Below are positions 4,987 to 31,232 of a stretch of DNA of 64,000 nucleotides, one piece after another. Numbering within the stretch: the first letter of the stretch is position 1; every line of letters starts with the position of its first letter. The translations under genes and the position numbers were made by a program. Source of the stretch: Escherichia phage vB_EcoM-UFV13; sequence record NC_031103.1. One strand, given 5' to 3'. Under the pieces are notes generated by a model that worked only from the letters and a program-made list of their open reading frames with translations, was not told the DNA's origin and did no database searches.

Positions 4987-5624
4987 TGAATGAACCCCAA
5001 TTACTAATTGAAACTTGGGGTCAACCTGGCGAAATTATTGATGGTGTGCCAATGCTCGAATCCCACGATGGAAAAGACTTAGGTTTAAAACCTGGTTTAT
5101 ACATCGAAGGAATATTCATGCAAGCAGAAGTCGTCAATAGAAATAAACGTCTTTATCCAAAACGCATATTAGAAAAAGCGGTAAAAGACTATATTAATGA
5201 GCAAGTTTTAACTAAACAAGCTCTCGGAGAATTAAATCATCCTCCACGCGCTAATGTTGACCCAATGCAAGCCGCTATCATTATAGAAGATATGTGGTGG
5301 AAAGGAAATGACGTATACGGACGAGCTCGTGTTATTGAAGGTGACCATGGTCCTGGAGATAAATTAGCAGCTAATATTCGTGCCGGATGGATTCCAGGAG
5401 TTTCTTCTCGTGGATTAGGTTCATTGACTGACACAAATAAAGGTTATCGTATCGTAAACGAAGGATTCAAATTAACTGTAGGTGTTGATGCAGTATGGGG
5501 TCCAAGTGCTCCAGATGCATGGGTAACTCCTAAGGAAATTACCGAATCACAGACGGCGGAAGCCGATACAAGTGCCGATGACGCCTATATGGCTCTCGCA
5601 GAGGCCATGAAAAAAGCGTTATAA
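4986..5624 (+). CDS. 21: Prohead core protease gp21
   Basis: 212 aa as in T4 gp21; position. Confidence 0.93.
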   Translation: MNEPQLLIETWGQPGEIIDGVPMLESHDGKDLGLKPGLYIEGIFMQAEVVNRNKRLYPKRILEKAVKDYINEQVLTKQALGELNHPPRANVDPMQAAIIIEDMWWKGNDVYGRARVIEGDHGPGDKLAANIRAGWIPGVSSRGLGSLTDTNKGYRIVNEGFKLTVGVDAVWGPSAPDAWVTPKEITESQTAEADTSADDAYMALAEAMKKAL

Positions 5625-5627
5625 ATA
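5620..5627 (+). promoter_or_regulatory. T4-type late promoter TATAAATA for gene 22
   Basis: Exact TATAAATA overlapping the gene 21 stop, about 28 nt upstream of the gene 22 ATG. Confidence 0.7.
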
Positions 5628-5654
5628 TTATTATCTAAACAACAGGACTACAAA

Positions 5655-6464
5655 ATGCTTAAAGAACAACTGATTGCCGAAGCGCAGAAAATTGATGCTT
5701 CCGTTGCTCTTGATAGTATTTTCGAATCAGTTAATATTTCTCCGGAAGCAAAAGAAACTTTCGGCACTGTATTCGAAGCTACCGTCAAGCAGCACGCCGT
5801 TAAATTAGCTGAATCTCATATCGCTAAAATTGCTGAAAAAGCAGAAGAAGAAGTAGAAAAAAATAAAGAAGAAGCAGAAGAAAAAGCTGAGAAGAAAATC
5901 GCTGAGCAAGCTTCTAAATTCATTGACCATCTTGCGAAAGAATGGCTCGCTGAAAATAAATTAGCAGTTGATAAAGGCATCAAAGCCGAACTGTTTGAAT
6001 CCATGCTTGGTGGATTAAAAGAGCTCTTTGTTGAACACAACGTTGTTGTTCCAGAAGAATCAGTTGATGTTGTAGCTGAAATGGAAGAAGAGCTGCAAGA
6101 ACATAAAGAAGAATCAGCTCGTCTGTTCGAAGAACTCAATATGCGCGACGCATATATCAATTATGTGCAGCGTGAAGTGGCATTGAGCGAAAGTACTAAA
6201 GATCTGACTGAGTCTCAAAAAGAAAAAGTCTCTGCTCTGGTCGAAGGTATGGATTATTCAGATGAATTCTCAAGTAAATTGAGTGCCATCGTAGAAATGG
6301 TGAAGAAGTCTAATAAAGATGAAAGCACTATTACTGAGGGTATAAATACTCCTGATACTGAAGCAGCCGGACTGAATTTCGTCACTGAAGCTGTAGAAGA
6401 TAAATCTGCATCTGGTGCAGAAGATATTGTAAGTGTATATGCGAAAGTCGCATCTCGTTTCTAA
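5655..6464 (+). CDS. 22: Prohead core scaffold protein gp22
   Basis: 269 aa as in T4; acidic, coiled-coil-rich; position. Confidence 0.9.
   Translation: MLKEQLIAEAQKIDASVALDSIFESVNISPEAKETFGTVFEATVKQHAVKLAESHIAKIAEKAEEEVEKNKEEAEEKAEKKIAEQASKFIDHLAKEWLAENKLAVDKGIKAELFESMLGGLKELFVEHNVVVPEESVDVVAEMEEELQEHKEESARLFEELNMRDAYINYVQREVALSESTKDLTESQKEKVSALVEGMDYSDEFSSKLSAIVEMVKKSNKDESTITEGINTPDTEAAGLNFVTEAVEDKSASGAEDIVSVYAKVASRF
6341..6348 (+). promoter_or_regulatory. T4-type late promoter TATAAATA inside the 3' part of gene 22, candidate gene 23 promoter
   Basis: Exact TATAAATA about 135 nt upstream of the gene 23 ATG; no exact motif in the short 22-23 spacer. Confidence 0.45.
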
Positions 6465-23287: not shown

Positions 23288-23317
23288 ACTATAACACAAC
23301 ATAAGGAACTTGTAAAC
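23288..23317 (-). promoter_or_regulatory. T4 early-type promoter (GTTTACA - 17 nt - TATAGT) inside a conserved leader element, copy 1
   Basis: Minus strand GTTTACA overlapping the alt-paralogue stop, 17-nt spacer, TGTTATAGT; about 90% identical to the element at 38261-38316. Confidence 0.55.
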
Positions 23318-25374
23318 TACATTTTGAACTTTTTAGACATTCCGTTGATGTTAACCAAAGAAGCTAAGATTTGAGAAACTTCGTTTTCCTCTTCTTTTGA
23401 TTCTTCTACAAGGAATTGATTAAATCCAGTCATTGGACGAACTTCACCAGTTTCCATCAGATGGTCGCCATCATATACTGATTCTTCTAATTGTTCAGAA
23501 GGAGGAACGATTGTACCTTCGATTAGATACTTGTTATAAGCAGTTTCTTTCATAAAGTAAGTACTTACTTTATTAATCTTCAGTAAAATTCCACGCGGTA
23601 GAATAACTTCAGCTTCTGATGGAAATCCTGATAAATGACCTGGAACGATAACTTTGATTCGCTCAGCTCCTTTAATTACCATACCCACGCTAGTTTCAGC
23701 ATCTTCATTAGCATATGTAGAATGACTACCCATATGCATTAAATCTTCGGCATCAACGGAACCTTCTCCTTCACCAGAAAATACTGCGCCGGAATCATCT
23801 AGAGCCATATAGTTTTTACCATGCTCACCGAAGATATTTGGTTTAAGCGATGTGGATACGAAGTTCTTGAAATAGAACATTTTATTTTCAATGTTATGAC
23901 GCAAAGTTTTAAAGGTAACTTCTTGTCCACGGTAAAGTGTAGTTCCTGGAGGAAGAACTGATCCTTTGGCAAAGGCAGAATCCAACGTCTCGATGTGCTT
24001 AATAGCTCGTTCCATGTATTCTTCACGGGTAGAATCTGGTTTACCCAAAAGGAACGAGTTCATTTCAACATATGAATCTGCACAATAATCTTCAATTACA
24101 TCAGATTCAGCTTGGGTTAGTCCTTTTGGAGTTACTTCGGTGCTTGCGTATTCATATGCCTGAGCAGCAGATTCATTAATCAATTTATAAATGCCATTCA
24201 TTACAAATTGAATAATAGCTGTCTTTTCATCTGGTGTAGCTTTAGAACCTTTAACTAAATCATTGATAATTTTCTTAATAACATCAAAGCTATTAGAAAT
24301 ATTAATGTCAGCAAGATCACTTAAAATTTTATCAGTTTTATAATCAAAGAATTCTTTATTCTTTAAATATTCTTGAGAACCTTGATATGTTATATCGCTC
24401 TGCAGCTTGATAGATGGATCGCGTAAACGTGCATGGGCCAATGCAATATGATTTCGGAAGCTTTCTAGTTCATAATCGTTAGATTTAAAACGAGAAGCAC
24501 TTCTCATACCACCGATAGCTCCTTTGCTGAAGTTTGAACCAATCTGAATAACGCCAGAGTTCATTGGTCCTTCTGCTTTATATACCGGAACCTTAGATTC
24601 AAACTCTTGATATTTCTTAGCAGCGAAGCTATCACCCTGAAGTGAAGCGTCAACAGTAGAATATTGAGCTTGTGCTGCTAATCGACGACTAATTTTAGTT
24701 TTCTGAATAACAGCTTGGTCAGTACGTTTATCATTTTCTAAAGCAATAGAAGCAGCAACAGCGACAGCTTTAGGAACAGCATTACCTGTTTTAACGTCTA
24801 CATAAACATCACCAACCTTTGATTCAACTTTTGTGAATAACTCAGTTGAAATAGGAGGTACACCTGGAATGTCTTCTAAATTGGCATTTTTACGGTAAAC
24901 CATAATATATGCATATTTCTTATCATAGTCCCAGATTTCCTTTAAGAGAACATATCGACCTGCTCCTTTAGTACGTACTAAACGGTCAGCAATAACTTGC
25001 ATTTGACGAGCAGCGCCATTTGTTTTACTTTTTAGTACGCGGAATAGGCATGCATCAATTTTATACTGCTTCATTGTTTGAAGAGCAGTATCAAAAACAG
25101 CATTAATGACACCAATTGGATTTCCACCCAAGTTTCTAAGCTTAACCAGCGATAATTTCTCGTTGACACCTATCATTACGATATGCATCATTTTATCGCC
25201 TGGCTTAACGTTTTTATTTGTATCACCGCCAGAGGTGTATGTACAAAATCTAAATCCAGGAAGCACACTTTCTTCACCGGCTTGAATAGCAAAAATTTGA
25301 GGTATTTTATGCTTAGGATTTAAGTTAACAACCGGCGCCGAAGCGCCGTCAAATAATTCTGTAATAAGTTCCAT
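23317..25374 (-). CDS. Alt-family ADP-ribosyltransferase paralogue (head-packaged Alt-like protein)
   Basis: 685 aa; N-terminal about 230 aa and C-terminal ART region align with the adjacent Alt; central region diverged. Confidence 0.85.
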   Translation of the reverse strand: MELITELFDGASAPVVNLNPKHKIPQIFAIQAGEESVLPGFRFCTYTSGGDTNKNVKPGDKMMHIVMIGVNEKLSLVKLRNLGGNPIGVINAVFDTALQTMKQYKIDACLFRVLKSKTNGAARQMQVIADRLVRTKGAGRYVLLKEIWDYDKKYAYIMVYRKNANLEDIPGVPPISTELFTKVESKVGDVYVDVKTGNAVPKAVAVAASIALENDKRTDQAVIQKTKISRRLAAQAQYSTVDASLQGDSFAAKKYQEFESKVPVYKAEGPMNSGVIQIGSNFSKGAIGGMRSASRFKSNDYELESFRNHIALAHARLRDPSIKLQSDITYQGSQEYLKNKEFFDYKTDKILSDLADINISNSFDVIKKIINDLVKGSKATPDEKTAIIQFVMNGIYKLINESAAQAYEYASTEVTPKGLTQAESDVIEDYCADSYVEMNSFLLGKPDSTREEYMERAIKHIETLDSAFAKGSVLPPGTTLYRGQEVTFKTLRHNIENKMFYFKNFVSTSLKPNIFGEHGKNYMALDDSGAVFSGEGEGSVDAEDLMHMGSHSTYANEDAETSVGMVIKGAERIKVIVPGHLSGFPSEAEVILPRGILLKINKVSTYFMKETAYNKYLIEGTIVPPSEQLEESVYDGDHLMETGEVRPMTGFNQFLVEESKEEENEVSQILASLVNINGMSKKFKM

Positions 25375-25377
25375 GAT

Positions 25378-27474
25378 TTATCCTTGAACGAACTTGTAAG
25401 GCATGTTTGTAATATCTATGCAAGACGCAATAATTCCAAGAGATGATTCTACTTTCTGTTTAACATTTGATGAAACAAATGATGCAAAGTCAACTCTGTC
25501 TTCTACTTCAATATCACCTGTCATTGCAACTACTTCACCGGTTTCCATTAAATGGTCTCCGTCATAGATTACCGATTCGGTGAGCTCTTCCGTAGTCATA
25601 ACTTCAGCTTGAATGAGTTTTGTATTATTAGATGTTGTTCCGTCATTATTAGAAGCATCAGTTATTTTATTAACTTTGACCATCAATCCGCGCGGTAGAA
25701 TAACTTCAGCTTCTGTTGCTATTCCGAGACTTCCTGGATATACAACATTAACTTTATGAGCTCCATCAATTGCCCATCCTATTTGAACTTTAACGTATTC
25801 AGGATTTTCTTTATACGCTCTTATTTCGTTTGGATTAATAGTTATTCCTTCTTCATTTTTATCAACTGTTAATTCATTGCGAGCTTCTGGTTCTAAAAGA
25901 CCAATACCAGCATGTGTAATTCCAAAACGTCCAAAAATGATAGGAGTTAAAGAAGTAGATACAAAATTTCTGAAATAGAACACTTTATTTTTAACTAGTG
26001 CTTCGTATATAGGAGCAGTCATACTTTGAGCACGATAAACTGTAATGCCTTCCGGTATGCGGTCACCATTTTCAAAAGCTGAATCTAAATTATTTATAGC
26101 AGATTCAATTTCTTTTTCACTCATTACATCATATCGTTCTGGATTGTAACGACCTAAAAGAAGATTATTAATGTCTGTATATCCTGAACCACAATATTCT
26201 CTAATACCTCGCTTTTGTGATGGAGTATATTTAGAACCATCACGGGCGATAGTAATATCAATCATTGGACCAGCGCCAATTCCGGAAAAGCTATAAATCA
26301 TTCGTTTGAGGAATTTAGTTTTTGCCGCATTCCAGGCATTTTTAGTTATTTCTCCCCAGACTTCATCTGACTGCCCTTTACGAGTTTTATTATGTTTATC
26401 AAGCCAATTATCTTTGTATTCTTCAAAGAATTTATTAACAGCTGCTGCGTATTTCTCTAAACATTTTATTGAAGTAGTTGGTTCATTTTTGATTGCGTTA
26501 AAAATTACATCTTTAATTTTTTCTGAAACTTCATCAACCTCACTTTTTGAAAAGAATTTATAGTCATAGTGAAGTTCATTCGCAGTTCCTTCGGCAATAA
26601 TTTTTGCTGCCTTAGTTTTAGAAGCTAATGAATTAATTCCAAGCTTCATTTCTTCTGCTTCGGGAATTAAAGGAGCGGTAGCAGGTTTATTGAAATTAGC
26701 TGCGGTAGATTCATACTTCTGGAATAATTCACTTTCAAATCTAGAAGATTCCAATGATTGACTTTGCGCAATTGCTCTACGGGAAATTTTAACTTTAACG
26801 ATTACAGCTTGGTCAGAACGCTTATCATTTTCTTGCGCAATAGATGCTGCAATTGCCTCATTTTTAGTTACTTGGGCTCCAGTATCTTTATTGATATAAA
26901 CATCACCGACCTTCGATTCAACTTTAGTAAAGAGCTCGGTACTAATTTCCGGAACTCCTGGAATGTCTTCTAGCGATACATTTTTGCGATGTATAAGAAT
27001 ATATGCATACTTTTTATCGTAATCCCAGAGTTCCTTAAGAAGGACGTATCTGCCACCTGAACGACTACGGATAAGTCTATCAGCAATAACTTGAATTTGT
27101 CGAGCTTGACCAGCAGTTTTAGACTTAAGAATACGAAGCATACAAGCATCAATTTTATATTGACGCATAGTTTGCATTGCAACAGTAAAAACTGAATTGA
27201 TATAATTAATTGGGCTTGGACCAAGACCTTTTAATTTAGCAATTGAACCTTTAGCAGTTAATGTAAAAGGAACAATATGCATCATTTTATCGCCCATCTT
27301 TAAATCGCGATTAGTATCACCTCCAGATGTATAGGTACATAAACGAAAGCCTGGTTGTTCAATTGCATCATCAACATGAACTGAAAAAATTTGTGGTATT
27401 TTCTTCTTTGGATTTAAGTTTGTAATCGGAAGAGTAGTATCTTCGTCAAATAATTCTGTAATAAGTTCCATCAT
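25378..27474 (-). CDS. alt: Alt ADP-ribosyltransferase
   Basis: 698 aa; N-terminus MELITELFDEDTTLPITNL and C-terminus IASCIDITNMPYKFVQG recalled as T4 Alt; ART motifs (YRxQ-like, STSL, EAEVILPRG). Confidence 0.9.
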   Translation of the reverse strand: MMELITELFDEDTTLPITNLNPKKKIPQIFSVHVDDAIEQPGFRLCTYTSGGDTNRDLKMGDKMMHIVPFTLTAKGSIAKLKGLGPSPINYINSVFTVAMQTMRQYKIDACMLRILKSKTAGQARQIQVIADRLIRSRSGGRYVLLKELWDYDKKYAYILIHRKNVSLEDIPGVPEISTELFTKVESKVGDVYINKDTGAQVTKNEAIAASIAQENDKRSDQAVIVKVKISRRAIAQSQSLESSRFESELFQKYESTAANFNKPATAPLIPEAEEMKLGINSLASKTKAAKIIAEGTANELHYDYKFFSKSEVDEVSEKIKDVIFNAIKNEPTTSIKCLEKYAAAVNKFFEEYKDNWLDKHNKTRKGQSDEVWGEITKNAWNAAKTKFLKRMIYSFSGIGAGPMIDITIARDGSKYTPSQKRGIREYCGSGYTDINNLLLGRYNPERYDVMSEKEIESAINNLDSAFENGDRIPEGITVYRAQSMTAPIYEALVKNKVFYFRNFVSTSLTPIIFGRFGITHAGIGLLEPEARNELTVDKNEEGITINPNEIRAYKENPEYVKVQIGWAIDGAHKVNVVYPGSLGIATEAEVILPRGLMVKVNKITDASNNDGTTSNNTKLIQAEVMTTEELTESVIYDGDHLMETGEVVAMTGDIEVEDRVDFASFVSSNVKQKVESSLGIIASCIDITNMPYKFVQG

Positions 27475-27525: not shown

Positions 27526-27712
27526 AGTAATCTAGTGGTAAGAGAGTACGATATATTTCAAACTTTGGTCCTTTTTCATAGGCATCAAATGTTTCTGTAA
27601 ATTTATTATAAGCGTATGCATCTACAAATTCGAGAATGACTTGTGATACAGAAGTAGAAACATCTCCACCTTCTTTTTGAGCAATGACAATTGTTTCTAA
27701 GTAAGCTTTCAT
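27524..27712 (-). CDS. Hypothetical protein, 62 aa, translationally coupled to DNA ligase
   Basis: ATG overlaps the ligase stop (ATGA). Confidence 0.5.
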   Translation of the reverse strand: MKAYLETIVIAQKEGGDVSTSVSQVILEFVDAYAYNKFTETFDAYEKGPKFEIYRTLLPLDY

Positions 27713-29172
27713 AGACCAGTTACCTCATGAAAATCGCCAAATACATCTTCGAACGTATTAGCTTTAGTTTTATCTTCGCGTAAACGAATCGCAATTGGAA
27801 GAAATAATTTAACGTAATCAGTGCGGCCATCAGATTTTAACCAACCGTTGCATTCGCACTCTAGAATTTTTCCAATATAATAATTTTGGTTTTCCATAAT
27901 GCGAGTACGGTCAAGTTCATGCGATTTTACGCCGGCTTTATCTTTTAAGCCTGAACCAGCATTTACTTTAATTTTTCCACACTCTGACTCAAGAATAAAT
28001 CCACCTGCTTTAGTAGGGTCTTTACGGTGAGGATAAATTCCTACAATTTTTAAATCAACATCAATTACTTCTTTAAATTTATAAAGATTTTTTGAACGAG
28101 CATTTTCCCATAATCCATCGATATTTTTGAGAATAATACCTTCAAGACCTTGGTCAATATACTTTTTATAAATTACCTTAGCTTCATCTAGGTTATTTAC
28201 TACCTGGTTTTCAATTAAAATTACTTTATCATAACCTGATGTCATTTGTTCTAGTTTAGAAAAACGTACATCATATTTCAAACGAAATGCAGGAAGACCG
28301 TATATTTCTACCAACGGGACATAATCCCAGACCTGAAACTTCATGCATTGAGCTTCTTTTTCAGAAATGGTTCCCTTTAAAGATTTATTAGCGATTCCAT
28401 TAGAAGCAGTACGTGATTCAGCTACTTCGGCGAATTCTTTAGCTTTACTAATTTCAGGATAAGCATCAAAAAGAAAATCTAGGCCTTCTGGCTCCTTTTT
28501 AACTTGCTCATGGTATACCAATTCGCCATCAATTAACACACCTTCTGGATGAATCTGGCGGGCTTCAGCGGTCATTTTGATTAACTCTTCTTTGAGAAGG
28601 TCTAATCCTAGATATTCATTACCAGCTCGTGATAAAAGACGAACATCATCTAATTCATCACCTCTGACTTCAGCAAAGCACCGAGCCCCATCAGCTTTTA
28701 ACTGGGCAAAGGCTGGAAATTTGATATTCTTATTAATGCCTTTTTCATCATAAGAACTTGCCAGCATTTGAGGTTGTTCAGGAATTAAACCTGGCCAAAC
28801 TTTGTTTGCAATAGATACTGAAGCACCGCATTCAAGGTCTCGCATCATCACCCGACGCAAAACTTCAACATCATCTTTTTTACCGTCAGTAATATATCCA
28901 GTTAATTCCTCAATTGCCGCATTTCCAGTCAATTTCCGAGTAGCTAACGTGAATTCAATGAAGTCGAGCATATCGGTAAGAGTCAACATTCCAAAACTCT
29001 GGGTAGCAATACCCGGTTTAGGCCATTTCTTGATATAATACTGTAACCCACGAGAATAAGTCAGACGATATACTCGTTTAAGCAATTCATTATCTTTATT
29101 CTTTTCAAGAATTGCTTGCTTCTGCTTAGTTGAACCAATAGATGCTATTTCGTTCAGAATTTTAAGAATCAT
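27709..29172 (-). CDS. 30: ATP-dependent DNA ligase gp30
   Basis: 487 aa as in T4 DNA ligase; N-terminus MILKILNEIASIGSTKQKQAILEKNKDNELLKRVY recalled as T4 ligase; adenylation lysine motif region. Confidence 0.96.
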   Translation of the reverse strand: MILKILNEIASIGSTKQKQAILEKNKDNELLKRVYRLTYSRGLQYYIKKWPKPGIATQSFGMLTLTDMLDFIEFTLATRKLTGNAAIEELTGYITDGKKDDVEVLRRVMMRDLECGASVSIANKVWPGLIPEQPQMLASSYDEKGINKNIKFPAFAQLKADGARCFAEVRGDELDDVRLLSRAGNEYLGLDLLKEELIKMTAEARQIHPEGVLIDGELVYHEQVKKEPEGLDFLFDAYPEISKAKEFAEVAESRTASNGIANKSLKGTISEKEAQCMKFQVWDYVPLVEIYGLPAFRLKYDVRFSKLEQMTSGYDKVILIENQVVNNLDEAKVIYKKYIDQGLEGIILKNIDGLWENARSKNLYKFKEVIDVDLKIVGIYPHRKDPTKAGGFILESECGKIKVNAGSGLKDKAGVKSHELDRTRIMENQNYYIGKILECECNGWLKSDGRTDYVKLFLPIAIRLREDKTKANTFEDVFGDFHEVTGL

Positions 29173-29438
29173 TGTTCATCCTTTAGAGTTTGGTTTACAG
29201 CTCTATTATAAATCAATTCATCATTAAGCTCAGTCAAAGACCTGTGGTATGTGGTTCTAACTTTATTTCCTTGCATCCAGTGCTTGACGTAAATGAAACC
29301 TTGCTCTACACATTTTTTAAAAATTCGTTCGTCTTTTTGAGCTCGGAATTCTGGATTGCATCTAAAAAATTGATTTACGTGACCGTAATCACGTGTAGTA
29401 TTACCTTCATTTTCATAAATAGTGTGAACGACAAACAT
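29169..29438 (-). CDS. Hypothetical protein, 89 aa (T4 30.1 position)
   Basis: ATG start; stop overlaps the ligase start (ATGA). Confidence 0.55.
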   Translation of the reverse strand: MFVVHTIYENEGNTTRDYGHVNQFFRCNPEFRAQKDERIFKKCVEQGFIYVKHWMQGNKVRTTYHRSLTELNDELIYNRAVNQTLKDEQ

Positions 29439-30277
29439 TAGAATGCTCCTTGGAAAATATTATCACCACTAGTAGGTCTATTATACAAATACTCTATGCC
29501 ACCAGGTTTAATATAGTTCCATGTCTGAAACGGATGTGTCTGATATGGATGATATAGATGATTATAAGGATTAAATCCAGGAGTTCTCCAGGTAGTGTTC
29601 CAAGGAAAAGAATCGTTTTTGATCATCTTCTCAATTACATCTTTTATAACTTTTTCACTATCAAAACTTTCTTTATTTTCCTTCGATGGAAAAAGCTTAT
29701 TCTCTACATCATTCCATGTATAAACTCGCTGTGCAGTTTTTGGAATACTGTCACGCTCTCCTCGAGCCATCCAATAAACAGGAACACTTAATATTTCACT
29801 CGCATGATCGCAGTGGTGAGCGAGATCGTCAATATAACAAATTACGTTATATTTCTCTTTTGCCTTTTTGAACAACTCTTCTTTTGAAGAATCATGACCA
29901 CACATCAATACTTCTGAGAAGGCACCAGGAAAAAGAGCATTCAAATTAAATTGACGATTCAGCAGAGCGTCAATAGAATCACCCAGTGCTGTAACAGCTA
30001 CAAAATTATAATCTTCTTTTAATTTGTTAATTACACACAGGGCATCTTTATATGGCGACAAGTAACGAATAAAATCTGAACGATTGTATTTTTCAATTAG
30101 CTTAACGCCAAGTTCTTCATCACAATTAAAAAGTTTACCAGGAGAAATAAATTTCTCATCCTGGATCATTTTTAAAATATGTTCTAACGGAAGATTATAT
30201 TTCTGAGCAAAATAAGGAAGGCCTGATTGCCAGCTTAAACATACACCATCAATATCAGTCAAAATAGTAGGCTTCAT
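29438..30277 (-). CDS. HAD-superfamily hydrolase-like protein (T4 30.2 position)
   Basis: 279 aa; N-terminal LTDIDGV matches HAD motif I (DxDG[TV]); His-rich C-terminus. Confidence 0.6.
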   Translation of the reverse strand: MKPTILTDIDGVCLSWQSGLPYFAQKYNLPLEHILKMIQDEKFISPGKLFNCDEELGVKLIEKYNRSDFIRYLSPYKDALCVINKLKEDYNFVAVTALGDSIDALLNRQFNLNALFPGAFSEVLMCGHDSSKEELFKKAKEKYNVICYIDDLAHHCDHASEILSVPVYWMARGERDSIPKTAQRVYTWNDVENKLFPSKENKESFDSEKVIKDVIEKMIKNDSFPWNTTWRTPGFNPYNHLYHPYQTHPFQTWNYIKPGGIEYLYNRPTSGDNIFQGAF

Positions 30278-30732
30278 AGAGAGTCTCTTAATAGGTTTAA
30301 CACATCAATAAATTCAGCTTCGGTTAGTATTGTATCATCTTTTGTTAGACCACTAGCCATGCTGTGCTTCAAAACTTTTCCTTTCGAGGCTAGTAATGCA
30401 TCACGAAAGCCCTTGTTTTGGATCGCTGCTTCAAAATATGCATTTGTGTATAATTCTTTCCACGCTGGGGAGTATCTTGAAAACGGAACTCCCAGCCAGA
30501 AGAGGGTCCCACGGTCCTGAGCTCTTGCATAAGACCTTCCAGCTTGTTGGGCGGCCAATCCGGAGAGCCTAAATATACGTTTTTGTTGTTCAACATTTTT
30601 CACCTTGCATCCTTGGAGGAATCCTTCAAGACCTCCAAATTGGATACCATCCATAACAAAAGGCCATTGGGCGAAATTACTTAATGCGCATGATGGCCAT
30701 CTAAAATTACTTCTTATCTCTAACTCAGACAT
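30274..30732 (-). CDS. NADAR (YbiA/DUF1768)-like protein (T4 30.3 position)
   Basis: 152 aa; segment LSNFAQWPFVMDG...F mirrors the E. coli YbiA signature FSNFAAWPIKVDG...W as I recall it. Confidence 0.55.
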   Translation of the reverse strand: MSELEIRSNFRWPSCALSNFAQWPFVMDGIQFGGLEGFLQGCKVKNVEQQKRIFRLSGLAAQQAGRSYARAQDRGTLFWLGVPFSRYSPAWKELYTNAYFEAAIQNKGFRDALLASKGKVLKHSMASGLTKDDTILTEAEFIDVLNLLRDSL

Positions 30733-30940
30733 CTTTAATACTTATAATTTCAACATCAGCCCAATGACCATAACTTGGCAGACGGTCTTCAATAGATAAT
30801 CCGCCATCATATTTAAGCATTTTAATTGTCATAATATATGGCTCTAAATGGTCTTCTGTGAGCGGAGAAACGTCAGTCACACGATAAGTAACTTCAACCA
30901 TTTCCGTACCTAATAATTTCTGAATTAATTTCTTAAACAT
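30725..30940 (-). CDS. Hypothetical protein, 71 aa
   Basis: ORF in operon series. Confidence 0.45.
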   Translation of the reverse strand: MFKKLIQKLLGTEMVEVTYRVTDVSPLTEDHLEPYIMTIKMLKYDGGLSIEDRLPSYGHWADVEIISIKDV

Positions 30941-30944
30941 ATTA

Positions 30945-31232
30945 TCAGAACCTCATCTGAAAACCGTGTGATTTAACATTACCGCCACCAATATCAGAGA
31001 TATTAATTTCGCGCGCAATTGAAGGGTCAATGTCAATTTCATGATTAAGTTTAGTGATAGCTAAAGTATCACGCCCATTTACTGTACGGAATTCTAAAGG
31101 ACAAACCACATCAACGTAATTTTTAATCGATTCACTTGTAGGTTGCAAATGTACAGGAAGGTCTTTGGGCGCCTTTGAGAAAACAACTTCACAGAAATTT
31201 TTGCGGGTGTCAAAATAAGTAGTCATAAACAT
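30945..31232 (-). CDS. Hypothetical protein, 95 aa
   Basis: ATG start, GAGGA SD. Confidence 0.5.
   Translation of the reverse strand: MFMTTYFDTRKNFCEVVFSKAPKDLPVHLQPTSESIKNYVDVVCPLEFRTVNGRDTLAITKLNHEIDIDPSIAREINISDIGGGNVKSHGFQMRF

Follow-up and report, generated by a model that had tools for sequence, protein, structure and literature searches.

Genes 30.3 and 30.2 of a T4-like phage: an AdfN-type NADAR enzyme beside a HAD-superfamily phosphatase that is probably separate in function

The closest described counterpart of the locus analysed here is gene 30.3 of phage T4, identified in 2024-2025 as AdfN, an enzyme that undoes the ADP-ribosylation of DNA by DarT1. T4 AdfN is both needed to counter DarTG1 and sufficient to do so, takes ADP-ribose off DNA in vitro and is impaired by the E36A and K43A substitutions (PMC11825919). 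It hydrolyses guanosine-ADPr and not thymidine-ADPr (PMC11125620; PMC12945103), and the purified protein de-ADP-ribosylates DNA alone (PMC11825919; PMC11125620). The Glu/Lys pair contacting ADP-ribose is E43/K50 in PnNADAR and E36/K43 in T4 AdfN (PMC11543638; PMC11825919), and a phage NADAR family has been defined that carries an H123-type residue (PMC11125620; PMC11543638). An intact C-terminal helix is required, this helix being lost in the inactive allele of RB69; for full activity T4 AdfN additionally requires a further T-even factor, and in uninfected cells it gives no rescue from DarT1 toxicity (PMC11825919).

The window, that is, the whole 64,000-nucleotide stretch of Escherichia phage vB_EcoM-UFV13 (NC_031103.1) analysed here, derives from a T4-like (Tequatrovirus) genome in which genes 30.3 and 30.2 lie just upstream of gene 30.1 and the DNA ligase gene, all on the minus strand. 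A sequence-only reading had proposed that two ORFs of this region, of 152 and 279 aa, form a pair dedicated to ADP-ribose reversal. Both ORFs are present in the ORF list: the first is gene 30.3 (adfN, 30274..30732) and the second gene 30.2 (29438..30277). The motif strings on which the proposal was built are also there: ALSNFAQWPFVMDGIQF occupies residues 16-32 in the 152-aa protein, and the 279-aa protein opens with MKPTILTDIDGV. Downstream of 30.2 follow gene 30.1 (29169..29438), encoding an 89-aa DUF3045 protein (PF11243, E = 2.9e-64), and gene 30 (27709..29172), encoding the ATP-dependent DNA ligase (PF01068, E = 1.2e-32). The two Alt ADP-ribosyltransferase genes noted in the vicinity are likewise real, a tandem pair at 25378-27474 (PF03496, E = 2.2e-37) and 23317-25374 (PF03496, E = 5.8e-20) that we treat as context only. 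On the other side, the 71-aa ORF of gene 30.4 (30725..30940) shares 8 nt with adfN through a stop/start overlap (ATGTCTGA).

The block is tightly packed, the start/stop overlaps amounting to 8 nt for 30.4/30.3, 4 nt (ATGA) for 30.3/30.2, 1 nt for 30.2/30.1 and 4 nt for 30.1/30. A promoter and terminator scan showed the minus strand to be free of terminator-like sites from 30.7 through to the end of alt.1; promoter-like sites, at 26, did not exceed the 20.1 +/- 4.8 expected by chance, and only the terminator result is used here. Given the ATGA overlap and the lack of a terminator-like site from 30.7 to alt.1, it is very likely that 30.3 and 30.2 share a transcript. Co-transcription is the usual mark of linked function. 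These are most probably two separate early or middle T4-like phage genes.

The 152-aa ORF is a real gene and no chance reading frame: its protein has 114 database relatives, and its match to PF08010 (Phage_30_3) spans residues 11-150 and scores 234.6 bits (E = 3.6e-70), the cut-off being 36. It is identical to T4 gp30.3 at 148 of 152 positions (97%); the four differences, written as window residue, position and T4 residue, are K51R, R55G, L114Q and M125I, and none falls on a catalytic position. E36 (codon 30627-30625), K43 (30606-30604) and H123 (30366-30364) are all intact, as is the C-terminal helix, and in an alignment of 61 homologues E36 and H123 are invariant while K43 is at least 90% conserved. 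Links to the general NADAR family are weaker at the level of the single sequence (TIGR02464, E = 0.065; YbiA chain, E = 0.25). The comparison with E. coli YbiA made in the sequence-only reading holds, HMMER aligning residues 17-70 with PDB 2b3w (FSNFAAWPIKVDG against LSNFAQWPFVMDG), and the E value for this chain improves to 0.01 when the gp30.3 family profile is used. The general NADAR profile PF08719 is matched by 30 of the 61 homologues (best E = 1.5e-7).

As direct sequence searches against solved structures were borderline for both gp30.3 and gp30.2, we relied on structure prediction followed by fold search. The AlphaFold2 model of gp30.3 (pLDDT 93.3) has a YbiA-like alpha-helical core flanked by small beta sheets, and ends in a helix spanning residues 138-151. 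Foldseek against the PDB returned YbiA (2b3w, E = 1.7e-5), PnNADAR (8bau) and GlNADAR (8bat) as the top three hits; these NADAR structures are the only matches with a probability of at least 0.99, the next having E = 2.5. The window gp30.3 is thus placed among NADAR-family enzymes with its active-site residues present, and appears to be a functional copy of T4 AdfN, as judged from the 97% identity to the T4 protein and the intact catalytic residues. The anti-DarT role predicted for it agrees with the experiments on T4 gp30.3/AdfN (PMC11825919; PMC11125620), so that the gene is one already characterised and the finding is not new. In this reading, host DarT1 would ADP-ribosylate guanines in replicating phage DNA, and AdfN, a minimal NADAR-fold N-glycosidase, would hydrolyse the guanine-ADP-ribose bond by means of E36, K43 and the phage-specific H123, restoring a clean template on which replication could proceed. 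A Cas13b study of T4 that also mentions gp30.3 has no bearing on the matter.

The 279-aa product of gene 30.2 is encoded by a real gene, matching phrog_420 (E = 9e-93) with at least 100 relatives among the matches listed, and its family accounts for 1308 matched cluster representatives in a library of 1.84 billion proteins. A HAD-like character had been proposed for it, and the four catalytic motifs of the superfamily, DxDx(T/V), S/T, K/R and DD, agree: motif I, D8-I-D10-G-V12 (D8-x-D10-G-V, 30256-30242); motif II, T96; motif III, K132; and motif IV, D150-D151. Across 42 homologues D8, D10, G11 and K132 never vary, while conservation of T96, D150 and D151 is 90% or higher. The model, confident over residues 1-190 and folded to about residue 195 before a disordered C-terminal tail, has the Rossmann-like HAD core; directly after motif I it carries an insertion of about 65 residues that forms a helical cap (helices 16-86). 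Among its structural matches, capped small-molecule phosphatases and deoxyribonucleotidases are the better ones, the best E value against 5'(3')-deoxyribonucleotidases being 2.5e-8 (TM 0.64-0.70, normalised to target length).

The Pfam search returned no match for gp30.2 at E <= 0.1, its only hit being a weak one to HAD_PNKP (E = 0.19), and since no curated Pfam HAD model reaches its cut-off, membership in the superfamily is carried by motifs and fold. The NT5C profile (PF06941) does not match gp30.2 itself, but it does match 8 of the 42 homologues weakly (best E = 1.2e-4), and one remote relative passes the NT5C cut-off (25.5 bits against 24.8). In longer, apparently fused relatives the extra regions match nothing in Pfam, and a literature search on gp30.2 or gene 30.2 found no discussion of either in the library searched. 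The model makes gp30.2 a HAD-superfamily phosphatase with a cap, its nearest relatives in fold being the 5'(3')-deoxyribonucleotidases. It would be a Mg-dependent phosphomonoesterase whose active site is covered by the helical cap, and fold and motifs suggest that it most likely acts on a small molecule, a (deoxy)nucleotide being the probable substrate.

Comparative genomics argues that the two genes are neighbours by virtue of the conserved cd-31-30 gene block and not through joint function, 30.3 being AdfN and 30.2 a separate phosphatase; we give this reading a probability of roughly 85%. The steady neighbour of 30.2 is the ligase gene, found within 2 kb downstream in 69 of 75 T4-like loci, while 36 of 77 loci have a NADAR gene no more than 1.5 kb upstream of 30.2, with the two genes abutting in 21 of the 77, and in several complete T4-like genomes the NADAR gene is 55-60 kb away. 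Where the adjacency exists it is old, occurring also in Acinetobacter- and Aeromonas-type T4-like phages. Beyond these, among 66 diverged NADAR loci (at most 46% identical) a 30.2-type gene is near NADAR in only 6, all T4-like; at one further locus, on the unrelated phage contig L058, an unrelated NT5C-like HAD ORF lies 4-9 nt upstream of NADAR. When the ORFs within 2.5 kb of the 66 distant NADARs were clustered, every family was limited to 8 loci at most, and the two clusters heading the list, ligase and 30.2, came from T4-like contigs only; the distant gp30.3-family loci thus have no conserved neighbour. Nor did distant NADARs show an excess of HAD-motif ORFs around them (1 of 301 nearby ORFs against 5 of 671 at greater distance) in a scan whose strict motif missed DxDGI variants of the 30.2 family, these having already been counted by profile search. 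A cognate DarT1 toxin gene is absent beside the window NADAR, its neighbours being 30.4 and 30.2, and the gene is an orphan antitoxin-like gene, as published.

Published T4 transposon sequencing leads to the same conclusion. Insertions in 30.3 were strongly depleted under DarTG1 (log2FC -7.25) and unaffected under DarTG2 (0.03) or in LB versus M9 (0.12), and on a host lacking DarTG the gene is dispensable, with 27 of 28 sites hit. For 30.2, insertions at 71 sites gave log2FC values of -0.12 under DarTG1 (p = 0.61), 0.00 under DarTG2 and -0.10 in LB versus M9; the gene can be lost in the laboratory and has no detectable role against either system, with the qualification that a small or redundant effect could escape a pooled competition. 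Gene 30.1 was neutral under DarTG1 (log2FC -0.01). The proximity of the Alt genes had also suggested a link between them and the NADAR protein. Such a link finds no echo in these data, and the idea that AdfN primarily reverses the phage's own Alt/ModA/ModB modifications was rejected, given that 30.3 is non-essential without DarTG and that under DarTG1 transposon hits in alt, modA and modB are neutral.

Genome-wide, 30.3 and 30.4 were the only two genes significantly affected under DarTG1, the latter with a log2FC of -1.79 (adjusted p = 0.014), and the flanking genes 30.6 and 30.7 were unaffected. It is conceivable, although we consider it rather improbable, that the true pair is 30.4 and 30.3 and that the 71-aa gp30.4 is the T-even-specific factor AdfN needs for full activity. 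The partial depletion suits a potentiator more than an absolute requirement, and the transposon carries no terminator. The 30.4 family is moreover restricted to T-even phages, RB69 included, and in 25 of 27 checked T4-type NADAR loci a 30.4-family ORF of at least 40 aa keeps the 8-nt overlap with the NADAR start; loci L004 and L083, which are on the same contig, have no 30.4-family ORF of that length, and a shorter 30.4-like ORF is seen there. Against this, a good Shine-Dalgarno sequence is missing at the start of 30.3 (AGTATTAAAGATG), 30.4 ends 8 nt into 30.3, and the authors of the screen report 30.3 alone. Because the transposon has stop codons in all three frames at its ends, insertions in 30.4 would uncouple translation and lower AdfN without any function of gp30.4 being involved. 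RNA folding around the 30.3 start, examined for a coupling structure, was no better than in shuffled sequences (z = 0.39). Gene 30.4 is probably translationally coupled to adfN, or possibly encodes an accessory factor.

Turning to gp30.2 itself, its position immediately upstream of ligase in the 69 of 75 loci could suggest a nucleic-acid end-healing 3'-phosphatase, a second Pnkp-like activity that readies nicks for the adjacent enzyme. Weak matches to the polynucleotide kinase family phrog_415 (E = 0.0033) and the HAD_PNKP hit mentioned above point the same way. As a rule, HAD members acting on macromolecules, such as Pnkp, lack a cap, whereas capped members take small substrates. The gp30.2 model is capped and so departs from the capless Pnkp-type core, its better structural matches are the capped small-molecule enzymes, and in T4 the non-essential 30.2 took insertions at 72 of 72 sites, unlike the ligase gene, which is essential. 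Synteny with ligase is in any case weak evidence because gene order in the block is largely inherited. We therefore regard an end-healing role as unlikely, more so than a contribution of gp30.4 to AdfN activity.

Least probable is the proposed pair read as a two-enzyme module, in which NADAR would free ADP-ribose from DNA and the HAD phosphatase would act on what is released or otherwise potentiate NADAR: the 4-nt overlap without an intervening terminator-like site, the presence of a NADAR gene up to 1.5 kb upstream of 30.2 at 36 of the 77 loci, distant T4-like phages among them, the HAD ORF directly upstream of NADAR on contig L058, and the T-even factor needed by T4 AdfN (PMC11825919), with 30.2 present in every T-even phage, are outweighed by the neutrality of 30.2 insertions under DarTG1 and DarTG2, the separation of the two genes by 55-60 kb in several T4-like genomes, the lack of HAD enrichment near distant NADARs and the ability of purified AdfN to act alone on ADP-ribosylated DNA, so that for DarTG1 it is already largely refuted.

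With 30.3 and 30.2 most probably joined only by an inherited gene block, the main content of this analysis is a re-discovery of AdfN, and its useful outcome is negative and specific: the operon-style inference that placed a HAD phosphatase in counter-defence is contradicted by comparative genomics together with existing Tn-seq data. The HAD phosphatase gp30.2 is widely conserved and ligase-linked, with more than 1300 family cluster representatives. The mild DarTG1 phenotype of 30.4 insertions may reflect polarity or may point to the T-even factor that AdfN needs; if the depletion is not a coupling artefact, gp30.4 would be that long-sought factor for an orphan antitoxin-like enzyme. In a weaker variant of this reading, gp30.2 might serve a defence related to ADP-ribose or nucleotide signals.

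Compared with known systems, the window protein is closest to T4 gp30.3/AdfN (PF08010), with the same 152-aa length, the same place between 30.4 and 30.2 and the same E36, K43, H123 and C-terminal helix, the four substitutions given above being the sole differences. DarG1, the antitoxin of DarTG1 (e.g. the Geobacter lovleyi NADAR, 8bat), shares the YbiA-like helical core (Foldseek probability 0.99) and the reaction, hydrolysis of guanine-linked ADP-ribose on DNA, which is known for T4 AdfN and would extend to the window protein. In contrast to the orphan 30.3, DarG1 is paired with a cognate toxin gene, has an N-terminal DNA-binding extension that gp30.3 lacks, and carries Asp as the last-strand catalytic residue where gp30.3 has H123; T4 AdfN also differs from DarG1 in failing to rescue DarT1 toxicity in uninfected cells. 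E. coli YbiA (2b3w), the best structural match to gp30.3 (TM 0.69, normalised to query length), shares the SNFA-WP---DG and E--FQ motifs at only 18% identity and has Glu at the H123 position, and its described role is that of an N-glycosidase on riboflavin intermediates, not counter-defence (PMC11125620; PMC11543638). For gp30.2, the counterparts are the 5'(3')-deoxyribonucleotidases of the NT5C family (cdN, 2jao/2i7d; mdN, 1q92; and 3bwv), with which the motif I region aligns as DxDGV---(W/F)-SGL and to which gp30.2 is 17-20% identical; unlike NT5C members, gp30.2 falls below the PF06941 threshold and ends in an additional, disordered tail some 80 residues long.

The window comes from a phage genome of the T4-like type. 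The region 29100-31000 matched 700 phage records in a megablast search (best identity 95.9%), nearly all from Escherichia, Shigella and related Tequatrovirus phages. Both ORFs paired by the sequence-only reading appear in the ORF list where it placed them, and the T4 record identifies them as genes 30.3 (30274-30732, minus strand; 148 of 152 residues identical to T4 gp30.3) and 30.2 (29438-30277, minus strand; 270 of 279 identical to T4 gp30.2). The neighbouring ligase and two Alt-type ADP-ribosyltransferases were likewise located as proposed. In the T4 record, the block runs cd-31.2-31.1-31-rIII-30.9 ... 30.4-30.3-30.2-30.1-30(ligase)-alt.1-alt; gene 30.5, which in T4 lies between 30.4 and 30.6, is absent from this phage (30940-31232). 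Where T4 retains only the remnants alt.-1 and alt.-2, this phage carries its second complete Alt paralogue (685 aa, PF03496; 23317-25374, minus strand).

The anti-DarT role predicted for gene 30.3, whose catalytic residues are kept here, matches the function published for T4 AdfN and is not new. DarTG1 resistance of T-even phages was mapped to gene 30.3, renamed adfN (Johannesman et al., Nat Commun 2025, PMC11825919), which proved both necessary and sufficient; purified AdfN strips ADP-ribose from DNA and is impaired by E36A, K43A or loss of the C-terminal helix (PMC11825919). Independent biochemistry found gp30.3 active on guanosine-ADPr, not on thymidine-ADPr (PMC11125620; PMC12945103). Since T4 AdfN did not rescue uninfected cells from DarT1 toxicity and rescued T5 or Bas25 weakly, the authors postulate an additional T-even factor (PMC11825919).

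Gene 30.2 had been proposed to form an ADP-ribose reversal module with 30.3. This proposal was not sustained, as the linkage is inconstant across loci and 30.2 insertions are neutral under DarTG1 and DarTG2. The comparison covered two sets of viral loci, 80 surrounding a gp30.3-family gene and 79 surrounding a gp30.2-family gene. Of 75 loci with sufficient flanking sequence, 69 have a same-strand ligase gene within 2 kb downstream of 30.2; upstream, a NADAR gene lies within 1.5 kb in 36/77 and abuts 30.2 in 21/77. Seven or more complete T4-like genomes of ~162-175 kb have both genes but 55-60 kb apart (NADAR loci L021, L029, L037, L038, L040, L052 and L069, with 30.2 loci L145, L098, L123, L158, L114, L101 and L113; the contigs of L029/L098, L052/L101 and L069/L113 are examples). 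There the NADAR gene sits outside the 31-30 interval, among variable small ORFs, indicating that it has moved within the family. Where the NADAR shares 46% identity or less with the window copy (66 loci), a 30.2-type gene is nearby in only six, all T4-like, and no other neighbour is common to more than a few. A HAD motif scan around distant NADARs located one HAD ORF near and five farther off, and thus no enrichment beside them. The near case, the sole HAD-upstream arrangement among the 66, is a phage contig (L058, IMGVR_UViG_3300044475_000188) in which a 162-aa NT5C-like HAD ORF (5506-5991, MAKRIFVDLDGVMFDF...) ends 4-9 nt before a distant gp30.3-family NADAR according to two scripts; neither a gp30.2-family gene nor a ligase gene was found within 2.5 kb of that NADAR. 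Judged by gene order, the NADAR gene behaves like a mobile accessory gene that stands on its own, and 30.2 keeps a stable place in the surroundings of the ligase.

Genome-wide transposon-insertion fitness data for T4 (HIDEN-SEQ preprint, 10.1101/2025.11.20.689424) bear on the same question. In a plain K-12 host, 30.2 (72/72 sites hit) and 30.3 (27/28) are non-essential. Exactly two genes were significant under DarTG1, 30.3 (log2FC -7.25, adjusted p 0) and 30.4 (-1.79, adjusted p 0.014). Gene 30.2 was not depleted (-0.12, p 0.61, 71 sites) and is therefore not a required AdfN partner, whose loss would show; it showed no fitness effect under DarTG2 (0.00) or in LB versus M9 (-0.10) either. The connection to Alt, drawn from proximity, found no support, with alt (-0.01), modA (+0.11) and modB (+0.13) neutral under DarTG1; values for 30.1 and nudE were -0.01 and -0.03 (10.1101/2025.11.20.689424).

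Start-to-stop overlaps amount to 8 nt for 30.4/30.3, 4 nt for 30.3/30.2, 1 nt for 30.2/30.1 and 4 nt for 30.1/30. The simplest reading of the DarTG1 depletion of gene 30.4 (71 aa; 30725-30940, minus strand), whose stop overlaps the adfN start, is lost translational coupling, which would lower AdfN. The HIDEN-SEQ transposon carries no terminator and has stops in all three frames at its end (10.1101/2025.11.20.689424). No good Shine-Dalgarno sequence precedes the 30.3 start; gene 30, in contrast, has AAGGA and tolerates insertions upstream (T4 HIDEN-SEQ data, plain K-12). RNA folding around the 30.3 start revealed nothing. It is unlikely that gp30.4 is instead a real accessory factor needed by AdfN. 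Members of the 30.4 family occur only in T-even phages, among them RB69, and most T4-type AdfN loci have a 30.4-family ORF of at least 40 aa terminating 8 nt beyond the NADAR start; at L004/L083, two loci on one contig, the script found no such ORF, and a shorter 30.4-like ORF was detected.

A sigma-70-like promoter match (11/12; 31738-31709, minus strand) lies directly upstream of 30.7, and strong terminator-like hairpins follow 30.9 (32146-32125, minus strand) and alt.1 (27526-27507, minus strand). The window scan detected no minus-strand terminator-like site between this promoter-like site and the hairpin after alt.1, and a 30.7-to-alt.1 transcription unit delimited by these elements is possible. 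Pattern-based T4 middle promoters are annotated inside 30.2 and 30.1 in a close relative's record.

Within adfN, a 68-aa ORF in another frame (30390-30596, minus strand) corresponds to T4 30.3', annotated there as 'internal translation in a different reading frame'. Natural T-even phages occur with adfN destroyed by deletions. In the resulting chimeras, the AdfN C-terminal half is joined to the N-terminus of gp30.7, gp30.8 or gp30.4, or to the 30.3' frame (P0016), with a recurrent junction at the peptide TLFWLGVPF; further copies have lost part of the N- or C-terminus. The damaged relatives are P0014, P0074, P0108, P0016, P0007, P0004 and P0013. From these homologues, the counter-defence gene seems often lost in T-even phages.

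The HAD assignment of gp30.2 was borne out. No Pfam model reached threshold on the protein itself; the 42-homologue alignment contains the full catalytic set, D8-x-D10-G-V (motif I), T96 (II), K132 (III) and D150-D151 (IV). The motif I region, DvDGv--kWqSgL, aligns with MDGVLADFESGL of mouse cdN; in both cdN and mdN, the Phe of this segment presumably stacks on the base. Pfam NT5C is weakly matched by 8/42 homologues, and one remote relative scores above the cut-off. We conclude that the protein is a capped HAD phosphatase, a Mg-dependent phosphomonoesterase with, by inference, a small substrate that is probably a nucleotide; its biology is ordinary-looking. As most of this large family (1308 representatives at E <=0.001) measures ~190-210 aa, the ~80-residue tail is lineage-specific. 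This C-terminal segment (29438-29690, minus strand), missing from many ~200-aa relatives, is predicted to be disordered (pLDDT <50) and is enriched in aromatic residues, Pro and Asn; a short motif near its end, G(T)GIEY--N-PT, is common to several homologues. The tail may be a docking peptide.

The NADAR assignment of the 152-aa protein was confirmed at the level of family, fold and active site. The protein belongs to PF08010 Phage_30_3 (E 3.6e-70); its direct matches to YbiA (E 0.25 as a single sequence, 0.01 with a 61-sequence profile) and to TIGR02464 (E 0.065) are weak. The NADAR link is firm for the family because 30/61 homologues match PF08719 (best E 1.5e-7); several JGI entries carry the name YbiA/DUF1768. 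An AlphaFold2 model (pLDDT 93.3) gave three credible PDB matches, all NADAR: YbiA 2b3w (E 1.7e-5), Phytophthora 8bau and Geobacter 8bat. The window protein retains E36, K43 and H123 together with a complete C-terminus, and E36 and H123 are invariant across the family alignment. What defines the phage NADAR family is a last-strand His, in contrast to Glu in YbiA and Asp in DarG1 (PMC11125620).
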